The notes under the pieces: model-generated
Told to the model about the DNA's origin: nothing
Seen by the model: only the letters and a program-made list of their open reading frames with translations
The model's database searches: none
Translations under genes and position numbers: made by a program
DNA from: a virus
Taxonomy: Duplodnaviria; Heunggongvirae; Uroviricota; Caudoviricetes
Strand: one strand, 5' to 3'
DNA length: 22,590 nt
Virus record (IMG/VR): IMGVR_UViG_2585427750_000023
Location: 1-22,590 of that record
In this document: positions 1 to 7,433 of the stretch, in pieces
How the letters are laid out: every line of letters begins with the position of its first letter
How positions within the stretch are numbered: position 1 is the first letter of the stretch

Positions 1-933
1 ATGGACAACGACAAAATTGATCAACACAGCGACGAAATTGAAGTTGAGAGCGAAGAAAAAGAGCGCGGCAAAAAAATAGAAATAGATGAAGACCGACTCC
101 CCTCCCGGGCGATGGCAATTCATGAGCATATCCGCCAGGATGGTGAAAAAGAGCTGGAACGCGACGCAATGGCGCTACTGTGGTCAGCCATTGCGGCGGG
201 GCTGTCGATGGGCGCTTCGCTACTGGCAAAAGGGATATTTCATGTCGAACTGGAAGGAGTGCCAGGCAGCTTCTTACTGGAGAATCTCGGTTATACCTTT
301 GGTTTTATTATCGTCATTATGGCCCGCCAGCAATTATTTACCGAAAACACCGTGACTGCGGTACTACCCGTCATGCAAAAACCGACAATGAGCAACGTCG
401 GCTTACTTATGCGATTATGGGGCGTCGTGCTGCTGGGTAATATTCTCGGGACAGGTATTGCTGCATGGGCATTTGAATATATGCCTATCTTCAATGAAGA
501 AACTCGCGATGCATTTGTCAAAATCGGCATGGATGTGATGAAGAACACCCCCAGCGAGATGTTTGCCAACGCGATCATTTCCGGCTGGCTGATCGCCACT
601 ATGGTTTGGATGTTTCCTGCTGCGGGTGCGGCAAAGATTGTGGTGATTATATTGATGACCTGGCTTATTGCACTGGGTGACACCACCCACATCGTTGTCG
701 GTTCTGTTGAAATCCTCTATCTGGTGTTTAACGGCACGCTGCACTGGAGCGATTTCATCTGGCCCTTCGCACTACCTACTTTAGCGGGGAACATCTGCGG
801 CGGCACCTTTATCTTCGCGTTAATGAGTCATGCACAGATTCGTAACGACATGAGCAACAAGCGTAAAGCAGAAGCACGCCAAAAAGCAGAACGTGCGGAA
901 AACATTAAGAAAAATGATAAAAACCCAGCATAA
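1..933 (+). CDS. yfdC: Inner membrane protein YfdC, formate/nitrite transporter (FNT) family; host gene flanking the prophage
   Basis: 310-aa ORF starting at window position 1; multi-TM hydrophobic profile; sequence recognised as E. coli YfdC, the gene known to lie immediately upstream of argW. Confidence 0.88.
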   Translation: MDNDKIDQHSDEIEVESEEKERGKKIEIDEDRLPSRAMAIHEHIRQDGEKELERDAMALLWSAIAAGLSMGASLLAKGIFHVELEGVPGSFLLENLGYTFGFIIVIMARQQLFTENTVTAVLPVMQKPTMSNVGLLMRLWGVVLLGNILGTGIAAWAFEYMPIFNEETRDAFVKIGMDVMKNTPSEMFANAIISGWLIATMVWMFPAAGAAKIVVIILMTWLIALGDTTHIVVGSVEILYLVFNGTLHWSDFIWPFALPTLAGNICGGTFIFALMSHAQIRNDMSNKRKAEARQKAERAENIKKNDKNPA

Positions 934-1008: not shown

Positions 1009-1083
1009 GTCCTCTTAGTTAAATGGATATAACGAGCCCCTCCTAAGGGCTAATTGCAGGTTCGATTCCTGCAGGGGACACCA
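1009..1083 (+). tRNA. argW: tRNA-Arg (anticodon CCU), integration target of the prophage
   Basis: 75-nt cloverleaf read by hand: acceptor stem GTCCTCT/AGGGGAC (one G-U), anticodon stem AGCCC/GGGCT with loop CTCCTAA (anticodon CCT), T-arm GCAGG-TTCGATT-CCTGC, discriminator A plus encoded CCA; candidate -10 TATACT at 992..997. Confidence 0.93.
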
Positions 1084-1244
1084 TTTATCAGTTCGCTCCC
1101 ATCCGTACCAGTCCGCAAAATCCCCTGAATATCAAGCCTTCCGTAGATTCACAGTTCGTAATGGTTCGCGTCAGATCGTTGACAGCCGCACTCCATGACG
1201 GGTAAAAAGTGGATAAAATAATTTTACCCACCGGATTTTTACCC

Positions 1245-2402
1245 ATGCTCACCGTTAAGCAGATTGAAGCAGCAAAGCCGAAAGAAAAACCATACCGCCT
1301 ACTCGATGGTAATGGCCTGTACCTTTATGTCCCTGTGTCAGGGAAAAAGGTATGGCAGCTTCGCTACAAGATTGACGGTAAGGAGAAAATCCTGACCGTA
1401 GGAAAATATCCGCTAATGACTTTGCAGGAGGCAAGGGATAAAGCATGGACTGCGAGGAAAGACATCTCGGTTGGCATCGATCCGGTAAAAGCGAAAAAGG
1501 CTTCGTCTAACAACAATTCCTTTAGTGCGATTTACAAGGAATGGTACGAGCACAAGAAGCAAGTCTGGTCAGTAGGCTATGCAACTGAACTTGCAAAAAT
1601 GTTTGATGACGACATTTTACCTATCATCGGCGGCCTTGAAATTCAGGATATTGAGCCGATGCAACTGCTGGAAGTAATCCGCAGATTTGAAGATCGCGGC
1701 GCAATGGAGCGAGCCAACAAAGCACGCAGAAGATGCGGCGAGGTTTTCCGTTACGCTATTGTCACTGGTAGGGCTAAATATAACCCGGCACCTGACCTTG
1801 CAGACGCCATGAAAGGATACCGCAAGAAGAACTTCCCGTTTCTTCCTGCAGACCAGATCCCGGCATTCAACAAAGCACTGGCAACATTTTCAGGAAGCAT
1901 CGTATCGCTCATTGCGACCAAAGTTTTACGCTACACAGCCCTAAGAACGAAAGAGCTTCGTTCCATGCAATGGAAGAACGTCGATTTTGAAAACAGGATT
2001 ATCACTATCGACGCCAGTGTGATGAAGGGACGCAAAATTCATGTGGTTCCTATGTCAGACCAGGTGGTTGAACTTCTCACTACGCTAAGCTCAATCACCA
2101 AACCAGTATCAGAGTTTGTTTTTGCCGGACGCAACGATAAGAAGAAGCCAATCTGCGAGAACGCGGTGCTACTTGTGATTAAACAAATCGGCTATGAGGG
2201 TCTGGAAAGCGGTCACGGATTCAGGCATGAATTCAGCACGATTATGAACGAGCACGAATGGCCTGCTGACGCTATTGAAGTGCAACTTGCACATGCCAAC
2301 GGCGGATCTGTGCGCGGGATTTACAACCATGCTCAGTATCTAGATAAGCGCAGAGAAATGATGCAGTGGTGGGCGGAATGGCTTGATGGGAAGGTGGAGT
2401 GA
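1245..2402 (+). CDS. intS: Prophage tyrosine integrase (P4/CPS-53 IntS-like, N-terminal DUF4102-type arm-binding domain)
   Basis: 385-aa ORF from ATG 1245 (MLTVKQIEAAKPKEKPYRLLDG...), recognised as IntS-type integrase; directly downstream of argW in the same orientation. The ORF-track start at 1209 is a GTG extension and is not preferred. Confidence 0.88.
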   Translation: MLTVKQIEAAKPKEKPYRLLDGNGLYLYVPVSGKKVWQLRYKIDGKEKILTVGKYPLMTLQEARDKAWTARKDISVGIDPVKAKKASSNNNSFSAIYKEWYEHKKQVWSVGYATELAKMFDDDILPIIGGLEIQDIEPMQLLEVIRRFEDRGAMERANKARRRCGEVFRYAIVTGRAKYNPAPDLADAMKGYRKKNFPFLPADQIPAFNKALATFSGSIVSLIATKVLRYTALRTKELRSMQWKNVDFENRIITIDASVMKGRKIHVVPMSDQVVELLTTLSSITKPVSEFVFAGRNDKKKPICENAVLLVIKQIGYEGLESGHGFRHEFSTIMNEHEWPADAIEVQLAHANGGSVRGIYNHAQYLDKRREMMQWWAEWLDGKVE

Positions 2403-2581
2403 TCCACCTTAACTACTATCTAAGAGCACAAAGCCTTGCAATCCAGTGCAAAGCTTTGTGTGTCTCAGTTTTGTCTGCCATCACATGGAGATAATTAACC
2501 TATAACGCACATAGATGGTTGATGTTAATAAAAGCGCTGATCATCTCCTTAAGAGTATTTTAAGAGCATTTGAGTTATTAG

Positions 2582-2609
2582 CATGGAGGCGTATTGCCTC
2601 CATGTTTTT
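2582..2609 (+). terminator. Intrinsic terminator in the int-tailspike spacer (stem CATGGAGGC / GCCTCCATG, loop GTATT, then TTTTT on + strand)
   Basis: Perfect 9-bp inverted repeat 2582..2590 / 2596..2604 followed by T5 at 2605..2609; A-run on the other side, so it may act weakly in the tailspike direction too. Confidence 0.6.
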
Positions 2610-2610
2610 A

Positions 2611-4848
2611 CTACCATGTCGCATCTATGTAGAACGTTGGAGATGTAGTGGTGGACCCTTCAATCGATATTTGTCCTGTTGAAGCATTAATGGTGGCCAT
2701 TGCCATGCCAAATGAAACGCCATCAGCAGTGAACGGTACAGGGACATTTTTGGTTACTTTTGGTCTGCACCACCTCGGAAGCGTTAGAACAGTATTGCCA
2801 TTCGCAAATGAAGTGGCTGCCAGTTCAATATTAATTGAATTGGCAGTTAAACTTGACGGTGCCTGTACTGTTACGTTTGTTCCAGCCCACCATTGAACAG
2901 CTGCTCTTGGCGTGTAATCAACACGCGACCACCAGTCGATAATGGCAGAGCAGATAATTTCCGCATACAGACGATACCCTAACTGGCTTTGGTGAATGTC
3001 ATCACGCAGAAGTGGGTCGTATTGCGTGTTGAAATACTCTGGATATGGGGCCGGGAGCTGGTGAGTTGTTGTTACACAAATGACGTTATTGCCATATTTC
3101 ATCATCTGGCGTTTACCAGCTTCTCGCAACTCTGCGACACCGTCGTAGTTAGAAGATGGCTGGCCAGCCCCTCCAATAAATGACTGGCTATACCACATCC
3201 ACGGCTCAACCCAAACAGGGATACGACCAAGGCCATTGCAATATAAGACAAACTCATCTATCAATGACGCCATATAATCGCCGTTTTGGTTTGCCTGCCC
3301 TTCGTTAGTTCCGGCAACCATAATAACGATGTAAGCATCACCCGGCCCCTGAGCCTTCAGGAGATCTAACTGTTGCCTCATTGTCTGTCCGGCAACTGCC
3401 TTGTTTACAATGCTATGTGAACGGTGGCCGTTCGCTCCATCCATTAATTGCGGAATGTACGAGCTGAACGCGGAAATGAAATCCTCAGCTGTACTATCAC
3501 CGTGGATAAGGATATTAAGTGGAGGCTTACCGTGCACGCCATTATCAGAGGTGTAGCTGCATAATCCAGTTACACGCGCAGCACCTCCAGATGCCGTGGT
3601 CAGTGCAACAAACCCAACTTCGTATACATCCCCTACATCAGCAGTATCAAAGGGCAAACGTATCCCAACGCCATTCATCGTTATCTGCGCCCAGTTTTTA
3701 CCTTGCAGTGATACGCCAACGGTTGCTTTGCCCGGGGCGTACGACAGTAAACCTCCTGGCAGCGGGAATGGAGTTCCTTCTGCTACTGGACCACCAATTG
3801 GTTTCTGTCTATAAGACCACTGTGTAGCACCTGGTGCCCCATAGAACATCATCCAACCACCAGAGCATCGCAGAACAATCCCAACTTCTGAGGCGGCCTG
3901 AGATTCCATACGAATATGTGCAGAAATATGCTCTCCAATATCTATTGGTGCGAACAGGCCTGTTGTACGGTCAGTAGTTAAGGGGAAGATAGCTGCGCTA
4001 TCTGAGGATATGGTGACTTCACCTTCATAGAAGAACGTGTCACCATTTATGGAATAAACTTTACAATCTGACCATTCCACTCGCTTCATGCGAATAGGGT
4101 TTCGGTTGAGGATGGCCTGCTTAGCCAGATAATCCACTTCTCCACCGGTTGCTTTAAAGTTCAGGTGCGTAAATTCAAACGTACCCTCCCCCTCGTACTG
4201 CAACGATTTAAACAGTGAGTACAGATCACTGTCGAATCTCAGGGTGACATTTTTATCAATGATTACTTTACTGTTCGCAAGGAAAGAAGCGTTAGCAGCT
4301 GTAGACGGTACGGTGTACACCATCTGATTTTTTGAATGATTAGAGAAGTAAACATACCCGTAGGTCGCAACACTATCGCGCCACGCCTGGACTACGTTAG
4401 AATTATCATAACTTGGAATTTTTGTGATCGACTGCAAAACAAGATCTTCCTGTGAGATAGCTCCGTTTACCAGATTAACACCTCCTTGAGATGCAAGATC
4501 TTGCCTGAGTTGGTCAGGGTCATACTTCAGCACATTCGAAAAATAGAACTGCTGCGCACCATACGCATCATAAACAGCCATAGAATGGCCTTGCACGGTT
4601 ACGAATTTGGCAATCTGTCCGTTATATACCGGATATCCAGCAGCGTTAATGATGATTGGTTGCGAAACAGGAACGTGAGAACCATCTTCGTTCTCTACAT
4701 AAACCTGAATCTGGTTTTCAGTATTTACCGGGTCAGTGTCAATTTTACCGATATAAATTTTGCCATTGGCTACGGCTTTAAAAGAACGCGCCATAGTGAA
4801 GAGTTGCGAAGGCATCGATACGATCACATTGGCTGTAATGTCTGTCAT
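2611..4848 (-). CDS. Tailspike protein: P22-family head-binding N-terminal domain fused to a divergent receptor-binding region containing an SGNH/GDSL-hydrolase (esterase) motif set
   Basis: 745 aa; N-terminus [11 protein letters not shown]...[20 protein letters not shown]...[13 protein letters not shown] matches the conserved P22 gp9 head-binding domain; further downstream [11 protein letters not shown] (aa 447-455), GTNE (513-516) and DDIH (616-619) match SGNH blocks I, III and V; RBS GGAG 8 nt upstream of ATG. Confidence 0.85.
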
Positions 4849-4906: not shown

Positions 4907-4929
4907 AAAAAAACCCAGCCGAAGCTGGG
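4907..4929 (-). terminator. Rho-independent terminator between ant and tailspike (minus strand: CCCAGC-UUCG-GCUGGG followed by U7)
   Basis: Perfect 6-bp GC stem 4914..4919 / 4924..4929 with CGAA/UUCG tetraloop, run of 7 A on + strand (U on - strand transcript) at 4907..4913, about 20 nt downstream of the ant stop. Confidence 0.75.
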
Positions 4930-4948
4930 TCGTTGCGTTGGTTATCTG

Positions 4949-6872: not shown

Positions 6873-7433
6873 ATGATTTCTTTCCCTGCCGTAAATGCTG
6901 ATCATGCAGCGGAGAAAAAGAGAACTCTTGGTCGTATGGGGTCGACAGGTGGCATAGGAGAAAAGTCCAATGCTTCGCCTCCAGTTACCAAGAATGATAT
7001 AACCAAAAACAATAATATCGCTTATCTTGGAAAACAATACACTGAGGAGCATGCTATGGGCAGCCCATCAAGAGAAGAGATTGACGCGAAGCTTGGTCAA
7101 AACAAAGCAGAAATTGAGTTAATATCTGCTAACATGCGCGCTGAAATTTCAGCTTTCAGAGAATTCCAATCTAAGCAATTTACAGCTATGAATCAGTCCC
7201 TTAATGAAATTAAGGGACAGATATTCGCTAGCAATGGCGAAGTTGCAGGGCTCAAAGGTCAAATTGATGGCATTAAAACATCCATGACCGCGACCCAATG
7301 GCTCGTTGGTGCGGTTCTCGCTATGCTTGCGGTAATCATAACGCTTCCGCAGATTCAATCTTACTTCAAGGTTTCTGAGCCGACTGCGAAGGAAGCCGCT
7401 AGTGAAACCCATGATACCAAAATAAAGCAGTGA
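6873..7433 (+). CDS. Hypothetical coiled-coil protein with a single C-terminal transmembrane anchor; alternative start at 7056 (125 aa) with SD GAGGAG
   Basis: Heptad-like region EIDAKLGQNKAEIELISANMRAEISAFREFQ..., then hydrophobic helix WLVGAVLAMLAVIITLPQI; the 6873 start has a weak RBS, the internal ATG at 7056 has GAGGAG 6 nt upstream. Confidence 0.5.
   Translation: MISFPAVNADHAAEKKRTLGRMGSTGGIGEKSNASPPVTKNDITKNNNIAYLGKQYTEEHAMGSPSREEIDAKLGQNKAEIELISANMRAEISAFREFQSKQFTAMNQSLNEIKGQIFASNGEVAGLKGQIDGIKTSMTATQWLVGAVLAMLAVIITLPQIQSYFKVSEPTAKEAASETHDTKIKQ

Follow-up and report, generated by a model that had tools for sequence, protein, structure and literature searches.

A conserved stem-loop 3' of intS lies at a recurrent recombination junction between lambdoid and P22-like phage genomes

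Results

Gene content around the hairpin

The stretch of DNA analysed here (the window) is 22,590 nucleotides long, and its features around the hairpin are collected in Table 1. Its integration module is recognisably the standard argW-type module of KplE1, HK620 and Sf6, with attP upstream of int. The homology with the HK620 attP/int region (blastn, covering 1069-2450) begins at window position 1069, inside the 3' end of the tRNA gene, which places attL there, and the HK620 attP annotation also has attP upstream of int. Putative TorI-type sites, GTTCG (1154), GTTCG (1164) and GATCG (1174), precede a putative PintS made up of TTGACA (1179-1184), an 18-nt spacer and TAAAAA (1203-1208). The modules of KplE1 (CPS-53), HK620, Sf6 and CUS-3 are like that of the window in their insertion at argW, their IntS-type integrase and a PintS that has TorI sites and overlaps attL. 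In KplE1, for which this layout has been described, intS is under auto-repression and hardly expressed (Panis et al. 2010, PMC2951348). That account treats the promoter/attL side only and the 3' hairpin is absent from it. K-12 CPS-53 has the same hairpin 3' of intS as the window. The window intS, with its TGA stop codon at 2400-2402, is 96-97% identical in DNA to K-12 CPS-53 intS and HK620 int.

The whole of 2350-2680 is covered in just 2 of 5426 complete E. coli genomes. The PDB matches of the tailspike are limited to the N-termini of the Sf6 and P22 tailspikes. Beyond it in this P22-like prophage follow an Ant-like gene and virion genes on the - strand.

Table 1. Features of the window from its first gene to the tailspike gene
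Feature	Position	Strand	Remarks
yfdC	1-933		Pfam Form_Nir_trans; first gene of the window
tRNA-Arg (CCT), argW	1009-1083	+	ARAGORN; attL core in tRNA 3' end
PintS region, KplE1/HK620 type	1154-1208	+	Assigned by sequence match to the layout of Panis et al. 2010
intS-type (P4-like) tyrosine integrase, 385 aa	1245-2402	+	Pfam Arm-DNA-bind_3, Phage_int_M, Phage_integrase
Variable spacer, int stop to hairpin	2403-2426	+	Unrelated in Salmonella relatives; nucleotide diversity 0.20
Conserved stem-loop	2427-2460	+	Arms 2427-2440 and 2447-2460; loop 2441-2446; C2435·A2452 mismatch
T-rich tail TGTCTCAGTTTTGTCT	2461-2476	+	Homology to nearly all other phages stops at 2471-2476
Rare intergenic segment	2477-2580		Goes with the tailspike module of the window; right-flank cluster R5, common to 8 loci
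Canonical intrinsic terminator	2581-2610	+ (int-sense)	GCATGGAGGC-GTATT-GCCTCCATGT, then TTTTT
Convergent tailspike, 745 aa	2611-4848	-	Pfam Head_binding, residues 1-113; P22-type head-binding N-terminus

Geometry and stability of the hairpin

The hairpin starts 24 nt 3' of the intS stop. Its arms, CACAAAGCCTTGCA and TGCAAAGCTTTGTG, enclose the loop ATCCAG, and the 14-bp stem with one mismatch, the 6-nt loop and the moderately T-rich tract after it are exactly as the initial annotation had described them. The single mismatch lies on the + strand, where 6 of the 13 pairs are G-C. RNA folding, which had been proposed as a check, gave -15.9 kcal/mol (z = -5.0) for the + strand and -19.7 kcal/mol (z = -6.0) for the - strand, and none of 200 shuffles folded as well. 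The - strand fold is the stronger because the C·A mismatch becomes G·U there. Hairpins with a stem of at least 14 bp, at most one mismatch and a loop of 3-10 nt occur twice in the 22.6-kb window (2427-2460 and 7192-7222), and none of this quality occurs in 100 dinucleotide shuffles of the window. The hairpin is far beyond chance.

The stem can be extended to 2423-2465 by a G·U pair, a bulge and three further pairs. On the + strand its layout is then 3 bp, bulge, 9 bp, C·A and 5 bp, and on the - strand the extended helix has 20 bp and -26.7 kcal/mol. A U run begins 8-9 nt past the core stem, or 3 nt past the extended one. Each arm is nearly palindromic by itself (CAAAGCCTTG and CAAAGCTTTG, or CAAAGCYTTG), and the arms are therefore also direct repeats, 20 bp apart, a relation that the initial annotation had overlooked. 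A plain hairpin model leaves these near-palindromes unexplained.

Distribution and conservation

Window positions 2350-2476 match 164 phage records and 2618 of the 5426 complete E. coli genomes, including K-12 CPS-53 intS. A 65-nt query centred on the hairpin finds 212 places in 208 phage records, which amounts to one copy each. The carriers include lambda, 434, 21, phi80, P22, L, ST64T, SfII, BTP1 and HK542, together with mEp phages, Stx phages and Cronobacter ENT47670. The element is common to thousands of E. coli and Salmonella prophages and not private to the prophage of the window. The initial annotation had named a lack of conservation in related prophages as a refutation of its idea; the hairpin is conserved in 208 phage records and in about half of the complete E. 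coli genomes.

The conserved unit is the 34-nt hairpin with the T-rich tail to about 2476, or some 34-52 nt overall. Two P22-like phages of Salmonella, Emek and g341c, share only about 64% identity with the window in their int DNA and have an unrelated spacer between stop and hairpin, and yet their hairpin and tail are about 90% identical, C·A mismatch included. In a set of 40 close relatives, the two arms have nucleotide diversities of 0.084 and 0.097, and int third codon positions have 0.095; the values are 0.14 for the loop, 0.20 for the spacer and 0.25 for the tail. The arms are thus under moderate constraint. Of 102 distinct versions, 78 have a T-rich run, which lies on the int-sense side only. 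About one quarter of otherwise identical IntS modules have no hairpin or a 20-bp internal deletion, and therefore the element is dispensable. In several of the deficient modules, the 20 bp were deleted between the two direct repeats, and one IntS module without the element has a lambda tI-like hairpin in its place.

Covariation was analysed in 42 distinct versions that had been chosen without selection for the hairpin sequence. Paired positions make up 86.6% on the + strand and 92.2% on the - strand, and the difference is wholly due to a single position, C·A or G·U by strand, that is conserved in 38 of 42 versions. Covariation above background was not found in these 42 versions, its score being reached by 409 of 500 shuffles on the + strand and 277 of 500 on the - strand. 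Since none of the covariation measures rises above the shuffled controls, what is conserved in the stem is its sequence. Compensations are isolated (SfII, the L014 group, L052 and L010). In SfII, one C-G pair has become U-A and four pairs are G·U on the sense strand, with 13 of 14 pairs on the + strand versus 10 of 14 on the - strand. In the L014 group, two double changes have left an inverted repeat of 9-10 bp perfect, and the direct-repeat relation is lost; in L052 and L010 the mismatch is repaired. A homologous hairpin was not found in the IntS homologues of Dryocola, Pantoea, Erwinia and Xenorhabdus, which therefore add no covariation power; the Xenorhabdus homologues have unrelated terminator-like hairpins at the same position.

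An Rfam search of 2300-2750 (evalue mode) gave chance-level matches only, with no matching family. A literature search with the hairpin sequence string returned unrelated primers only. The element is unmentioned in what searches on retroregulation in P22 and phi80 returned, in the epsilon34 and oac1b papers, in BTP1 transcriptomics and in the Kapi1 paper.

Relation to lambda tI/sib and to other phages

The lambda copy lies at 27475-27508 in int-sense orientation, is 97% identical and stands 29 nt past the U tract of tI/sib. Along int transcription, the order in lambda is the int stop, the attP core, the tI/sib hairpin, 29 nt and the conserved hairpin. The tI/sib hairpin is ATTAGCGCAAG...CTTGCGCTAAT followed by T6 (about 27578-27538), and the conserved one is CACAAAGCCTCGCA-ATCCAG-TGCAAAGCTTTGTG (27508-27475), followed by unrelated sequence without a T tract. 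On folding, lambda sib shows its known geometry: 6 bp at the base, in which the U tract takes part, and 12 bp above, with a mismatch between them. The second hairpin folds as an independent structure beside it. The lambda HindIII site at 27479 falls in arm 2 of this second hairpin, and the genetically defined sib/tI is the neighbouring hairpin and not the conserved element. By alignment, the window hairpin is the homologue of sib's neighbour and not of sib. We therefore reject it as a sib/tI homologue, as it aligns to lambda 27475-27508 and tI/sib is separate at about 27543-27578.

The two hairpins are alike in being int-sense stem-loops distal to int with an internal mismatch and a similar overall stem length. 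However, tI/sib is a canonical terminator whose stem is extended by read-through, whereas the element is no canonical terminator. In addition, the action of sib in lambda depends on its separation from int by attP in the prophage. In the window, tRNA/attL (1009-1083) comes first, then PintS, intS (1245-2402) and the hairpin. Since attL and PintS are upstream of intS, the hairpin stays linked to int in phage and prophage, and lambda-type integration-dependent retroregulation therefore cannot operate here. The idea that the hairpin serves sib-like retroregulation of int thus holds for the neighbourhood, a 97% identical copy being found 29 nt from lambda tI/sib, but fails on the hairpin, which is a different one, and on the position of attL.

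A comparison with the attP-proximal region of relatives had also been proposed, and it places homologues near att in lambda, 434, L and SfII. Past the annotated tI of 434 come the fossil remains of an intS 3' end (its last ~84 nt), a spacer and the hairpin. In mEp234, Sf101 and Stx-1717, another integrase lies on the opposite strand, and the intS fossil and the hairpin are found just past attP. In phage L, which is P22-like, and in SfII, the element lies between attP and gtrA. The intS 3' fossils upstream of the hairpin in 434, mEp234, Sf101 and Stx phages point to the 3' flank of intS-type genes, where it lies in the window, as its original home; this arrangement indicates that other int-att cassettes were placed upstream later. 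The b-region side of attP in lambda would then hold the fossil of the end of an IntS-type module.

Junctions and reassortment of flanking modules

Homology between phages repeatedly begins or ends at the element, with edges at 2420-2429 and 2471-2476. In phage comparisons the right edge is constant at 2471-2476, just past the T-rich tail. The left edge is variable, at 2319 in 434, at 2343-2345 in Stx-1717, mEp234 and Sf101 and at 2422-2425 in other prophages. A search with the hairpin alone found 120 viral contigs, of which 55 are without any intS remnant; at least 8 unrelated upstream contexts occur.

For a junction test, we used 165 loci with at least 130 nt on both sides. They fall into 10 unrelated left-flank clusters and 58 unrelated right-flank clusters, with 73 combinations among them. 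For two left and two right flanks, all four possible pairings are present in 27 cases, which is a positive four-gamete test. Moreover, hybrid versions exist in which an E. coli-type upstream part is joined to a Salmonella-type loop or tail (L022, L020 and L148). The four-gamete cases and the hybrids mean that recombination has recurred at or within the element. Thus, the element is a recurrent recombination junction between phage genomes.

Scoring as a terminator

The element has been labelled before. In HK620 (AF335538, 38289..23) it was annotated in 2001 as 'terminator for prophage excision transcript', and in SfII (KC736978) and phage L (MW013503) the same element is labelled a putative rho-independent terminator. 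These annotations concern the same homologous sequence at the same place relative to int or att. The element was thus already known, being annotated in HK620 in 2001 and present in lambda. However, the labels are in silico only, and the element fails canonical scoring in every context.

We scored it by the d'Aubenton-Carafa criteria with a threshold of d > 0. In the window, d is -38 for the core, -60 for the 2423-2465 extension, -11 in the best case and about -40 on the - strand. The value of Y is 0.47 for the hairpin (34 nt) versus 0.68-0.70 for control terminators in the window. The first 8 nt past the core stem are UGUCUCAG, so that no U tract stands directly (0-2 nt) after the stem. Among 128 distinct versions with flanks, the core passes in 0% on either strand; with the most favourable stem extension, 20% pass on the + strand and 4% on the - strand. 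A consensus terminator scan left the hairpin unreported. We therefore reject a canonical intrinsic terminator, since both the G+C-rich stable stem and the adjacent U tract are missing. The earlier view that the hairpin is atypical as an intrinsic terminator agrees with d values of -38 to -60 in the window and below 0 for the core in 128 of 128 versions.

A second hairpin followed by T5 (2581-2605) folds with -17.6 to -19.4 kcal/mol (z = -6.9) and has d = +11.9 on the + strand and -29.6 on the - strand; the terminator at 4931-4912 scores d = +21. The int-sense terminator of the prophage is likely to be this second hairpin (2581-2610), 120 nt past the element. In K-12 Term-seq data (Adams 2021 tables), no 3' end is found from argW (2,466,383) to yfdI/ryeG (2,470,466), in a region where intS is barely expressed and the power is low. 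These data are weak evidence because intS is auto-repressed.

Discussion

The idea that short conserved sequences between modules serve as boundary sequences, or linkers, in lambdoid phages goes back to early work (Susskind & Botstein 1978; Clark et al. 2001; both as cited in passages of PMC3029335). Later authors noted that such sequences are seldom identifiable at mosaic joints (PMC3029335). What we find at 2427-2476 is a conserved short sequence with unrelated flanks on both sides and with reassorted flanking modules, and in these respects it is like the lambdoid boundary sequences. However, the linker concept demands no fold, whereas the element is also a stable inverted repeat with a directional tail. 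We suggest that it is a conserved module-boundary element of lambdoid and P22-like phages, in which the junction role goes together with that of an RNA insulator. Belief and doubt are about evenly balanced in our view of this combined reading. The element is a stem-loop CACAAAGCCTTGCA-N6-TGCAAAGCTTTGTG, usually followed by TGTCYCNNTTTTGTCTCA, and would mark the distal edge of the int/att module, where interchangeable DNA joins. Examples of the joined DNA are conversion genes (gtr, oac), tail fibres, the b region of lambda and, in the window, the tailspike. In the individual phage, the element may form a stable 3' stem-loop on int-sense RNA and may act as a leaky non-canonical terminator and/or as a barrier to 3' exonucleases. 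The downstream module would in this way be insulated from int or host read-through. In the window, such an insulator would be largely redundant because of the canonical + strand terminator at 2581-2610. Hints for the sense strand are the T-rich tail on the int-sense side only, the 13 of 14 pairs kept by SfII on the + strand, the inverted repeat kept by the L014 group, the Xenorhabdus hairpins in the same position and the terminator labels in the HK620, SfII and L records. Against the reading stand the failed terminator scoring, the lambda copy without a T tract, the missing covariation, with a conserved mismatch that is C·A in sense RNA and G·U in antisense RNA, the dispensability of the element, its near-palindromic arms and the Term-seq interval without a 3' end, in which intS is barely expressed.

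The alternative that we take most seriously, though we think it unlikely, is that the element is purely an evolutionary linker or relic. It would have no role in the phage life cycle and would persist and stay uniform only as viable recombinants formed at shared sequence spread, as recombinases of the Red, Erf or RecT type need merely a few tens of bp of homology. The reassorted flanks and the hybrid versions are consistent with this, as are the missing covariation and the failed terminator scoring. The element is also dispensable, given that about 25% of IntS modules are without it and 20-bp deletion variants exist; arm diversity is about equal to that of int third codon positions, and a canonical terminator is present downstream in the window. 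However, variability in the arms is 2-3 times lower than in the non-coding spacer, loop and tail next to them. A stable inverted repeat (z about -5 to -6) is unexpected for neutral sequence, and pairing is retained in the divergent SfII and L014 group. Some form of recognition of the duplex DNA has also been considered. The arms may form two near-palindromic 10-14 bp sites (TGCAAAGCYTTGYR) for a dimeric protein, with centres 20 bp apart and the loop as a variable spacer, which would fit direct repeats two helical turns apart and a stem conserved as sequence without covariation around a varying 6-nt middle. We regard such a site as improbable. The known sites of the module, GTTCG/GATCG/GTCCG for TorI and the TAAA arm site of IntS, are absent from the element, which also lies outside the minimal attP and the 115-bp gtr switch region. 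In addition, the L014 group keeps the inverted and not the direct symmetry, the conserved tail is asymmetric, and there is no consistent partner protein because the element adjoins four or more unrelated integrase types.

Three further readings concern transcripts. An RNase III (or other double-strand-specific) processing site on int-sense RNA, the idea of the initial annotation, would destabilise or mature the int transcript in a sib-like manner. The extended stem has about the dimensions of lambda sib (6 bp, mismatch, 12 bp), and 38 of the 42 unbiased versions share the internal mismatch. A sib-like topology is also possible in lambda, 434, P22/L and SfII, where attP stands between int and the element. 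But attP is upstream of int in the window and in all IntS-type modules, where processing would be equal in phage and prophage. The groove of the enzyme fits about 22 bp versus a continuous helix of 14 bp here, and the genetically defined sib/tI of lambda is the neighbouring hairpin; we give this reading little credence. We are similarly doubtful that the - strand is the functional one, with late-operon read-through RNA from the tailspike side forming a perfect 14-bp helix as a 3' end or barrier before antisense int. Pairing is higher on this strand (92.2% versus 86.6%) and its fold more stable, a U-rich run stands directly after the hairpin on it in P22-type and g341c contexts, and the tailspike converges on the hairpin in the window. 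However, the core has d < 0 on the - strand in all versions and 4% pass with extension; the - strand tail in the window is CUCUUAGAUAG and the conserved tail is on the + side. The downstream gtr, oac and lambda ea genes are mostly co-oriented with int, so that little - strand transcription is expected, and SfII favours the + strand. Least probable is a CII-activated - strand promoter with the box TTGC-N6-TTGC (2451 to 2438), as labelled in 434 and 21 GenBank records. The window has the box, as do 42 of 49 distinct hairpins, and its annotation in 434 and the 21 records was made by pattern. In lambda pRE and pI, the -10 element is 12-13 nt from the CII box. No -10 is found at 12-13 nt here, the nearest candidate, GATAGT, being 17 nt away, and conservation ends at the hairpin base on the -10/+1 side, where the spacer is unrelated in Salmonella. 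A TTGCA...TGCAA stem with a 6-nt loop leaves the box needing just one specific loop base, and a CII-activated transcript antisense to int makes little regulatory sense.

Other readings were set aside on more direct grounds. We reject a CII promoter for want of a conserved and correctly spaced -10. A TorI or IntS arm site is rejected because the published motifs (Panis 2010, PMC2951348) are absent from 2427-2476, the TorI-type sites lying at 1154-1178 upstream of intS. The L014 group, with inverted but not direct symmetry kept, weakens a tandem operator model. The element is no part of a gtr phase-variation switch, as it lies outside the 115-bp switch region. It is also no terminator of an interrupted tRNA gene, since in the window it stands 1.3 kb past argW, with int in between. 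In the phage L record, the tRNA-like fragment at attP is on the strand opposite to int and the element. Together with the P22 map, this suggests that thrW, once rebuilt, is read in the direction of int rather than of the element. An integron attC-like cassette site or a MITE is rejected since there is no consistent integrase partner, and a cassette site or mobile repeat is further disfavoured because each phage has a single copy (212 places in 208 records).

The first interpretation of this hairpin is thus kept in part: it is conserved, atypical as a terminator and truly linked to the sib region, but it is not sib, and sib-type control is impossible here. For annotation, this means that the hairpin should be taken neither for a sib-like int regulator nor for an established terminator, but for a widespread boundary element. 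To the study of phage evolution it offers a case, unusually clear and countable, in which integration modules have been reassorted many times against cargo or tail modules at a short conserved sequence. The element would also render the decades-old boundary-sequence model experimentally testable in lambda, P22 or HK620.

The uniformity of the stem sequence, mismatch included, across unrelated contexts is a puzzle. Possibly, the stem sequence itself, with its conserved C·A mismatch and near-palindromic arms, is recognised by some factor of host or phage, be it an RNase, an RNA-binding protein or a DNA-binding dimer. Alternatively, it may serve as a dedicated linker for recombination that phage recombinases keep uniform. 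We think this reading, in either form, quite unlikely. If it were true, an element of about 50 bp, shared from lambda to P22 and lying next to sib, would actively drive the exchange of cargo or tail modules against integration modules.

Variants and replacements of the int-distal hairpin

The conserved stem-loop distal to intS (2427-2460) is absent, shortened or found beside other types of integrase gene in some other phages. In the IMG/VR contig L031, a hairpin like the tI/sib hairpin of lambda (CATTAGCGCAAG...TTGCGCTAATTTTTTG) stands in its place directly past the IntS stop, while the IntS gene is otherwise identical. Thus, the two int-distal hairpins seem interchangeable. Further variants (the L072 group, L033, L083, L035 and L062) have a deletion of the 20 bp that separate the two CAAAGCYTTG direct repeats and keep one single palindrome (e.g., CACAAAGCCTTGTGTG), which resembles the outcome of slippage or recombination involving the self-similar arms. 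In phages whose integrase is of the lambda or 2851 type, the last ~60-110 nt of an intS gene persist as a fossil, with attP (or tI) on one side and the hairpin on the other. These fossils are traces of integrase-module replacement.

The inner stem and first loop base create a CII-box-like motif, found in 42 of the 49 distinct hairpins; GenBank entries for phages 434 and 21 label it, by pattern, as CII binding sites. In lambda (locus L226, where 480-485 corresponds to lambda 27479-27484), the classical HindIII site at 27479 lies inside arm 2 of the hairpin copy. Because HindIII cuts within this arm, cloned att or sib fragments ending there would be missing the intact hairpin.

Features of the window and intS fossils at compared loci (d, d'Aubenton-Carafa terminator score)
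Feature	Locus	Positions	Strand	Details
Repeats and putative promoter	Window	1154-1208		GTTCG, GTTCG, GATCG; then TTGACA, 18-nt spacer, TAAAAA
TTGC-N6-TTGC motif	Window	2438-2451	-	CII-box-like
Canonical intrinsic terminator	Window	2581-2610	+	GCATGGAGGC-GTATT-GCCTCCATGT, then TTTTT; d = +11.9
Strong intrinsic terminator	Window	4912-4931	-	GACCCAGC-TTCG-GCTGGGTT, then TTTTT
Long near-perfect inverted repeat	Window	7192-7222		TCAGTCCCTTAAT-GAA-ATTAAGGGACAGA
intS fossil	L003 (phage 434)	2404-2623 (region with the fossil)
intS fossil	L104, L105, L103

Transcription signals and the neighboring tailspike gene

The repeats and putative promoter upstream of intS reproduce the layout described for KplE1, with its TorI I3-I5 sites and PintS promoter, and therefore intS is probably repressed both by its own product and by the recombination directionality factor (RDF). 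The canonical terminator is oriented to stop int-sense transcription, and it ends at a distance of 1 nt from the stop codon of the tailspike gene. Scored in the tailspike orientation, this hairpin is without a U tract (d = -30). The strong minus-strand terminator separates the ant-like gene from the tailspike gene, the site at which P22-like phages have their known ant/gene 9 terminator.

Matches to the tailspike (2611-4848, minus strand) are confined to residues 1-113 (Pfam Head_binding; the Sf6 and P22 N-termini in the PDB), and the remaining ~630 aa have no sequence match in Pfam or PDB. Within this remainder, a 14-residue SGNH/GDSL-like block, judged by eye, may point to a receptor-modifying domain of esterase type. 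Among 5426 complete E. coli genomes, only 2 contain the 2350-2680 segment in full.

Besides the int-distal hairpin, the window has a sole other long near-perfect inverted repeat, and this falls within a plus-strand ORF (6873-7433).
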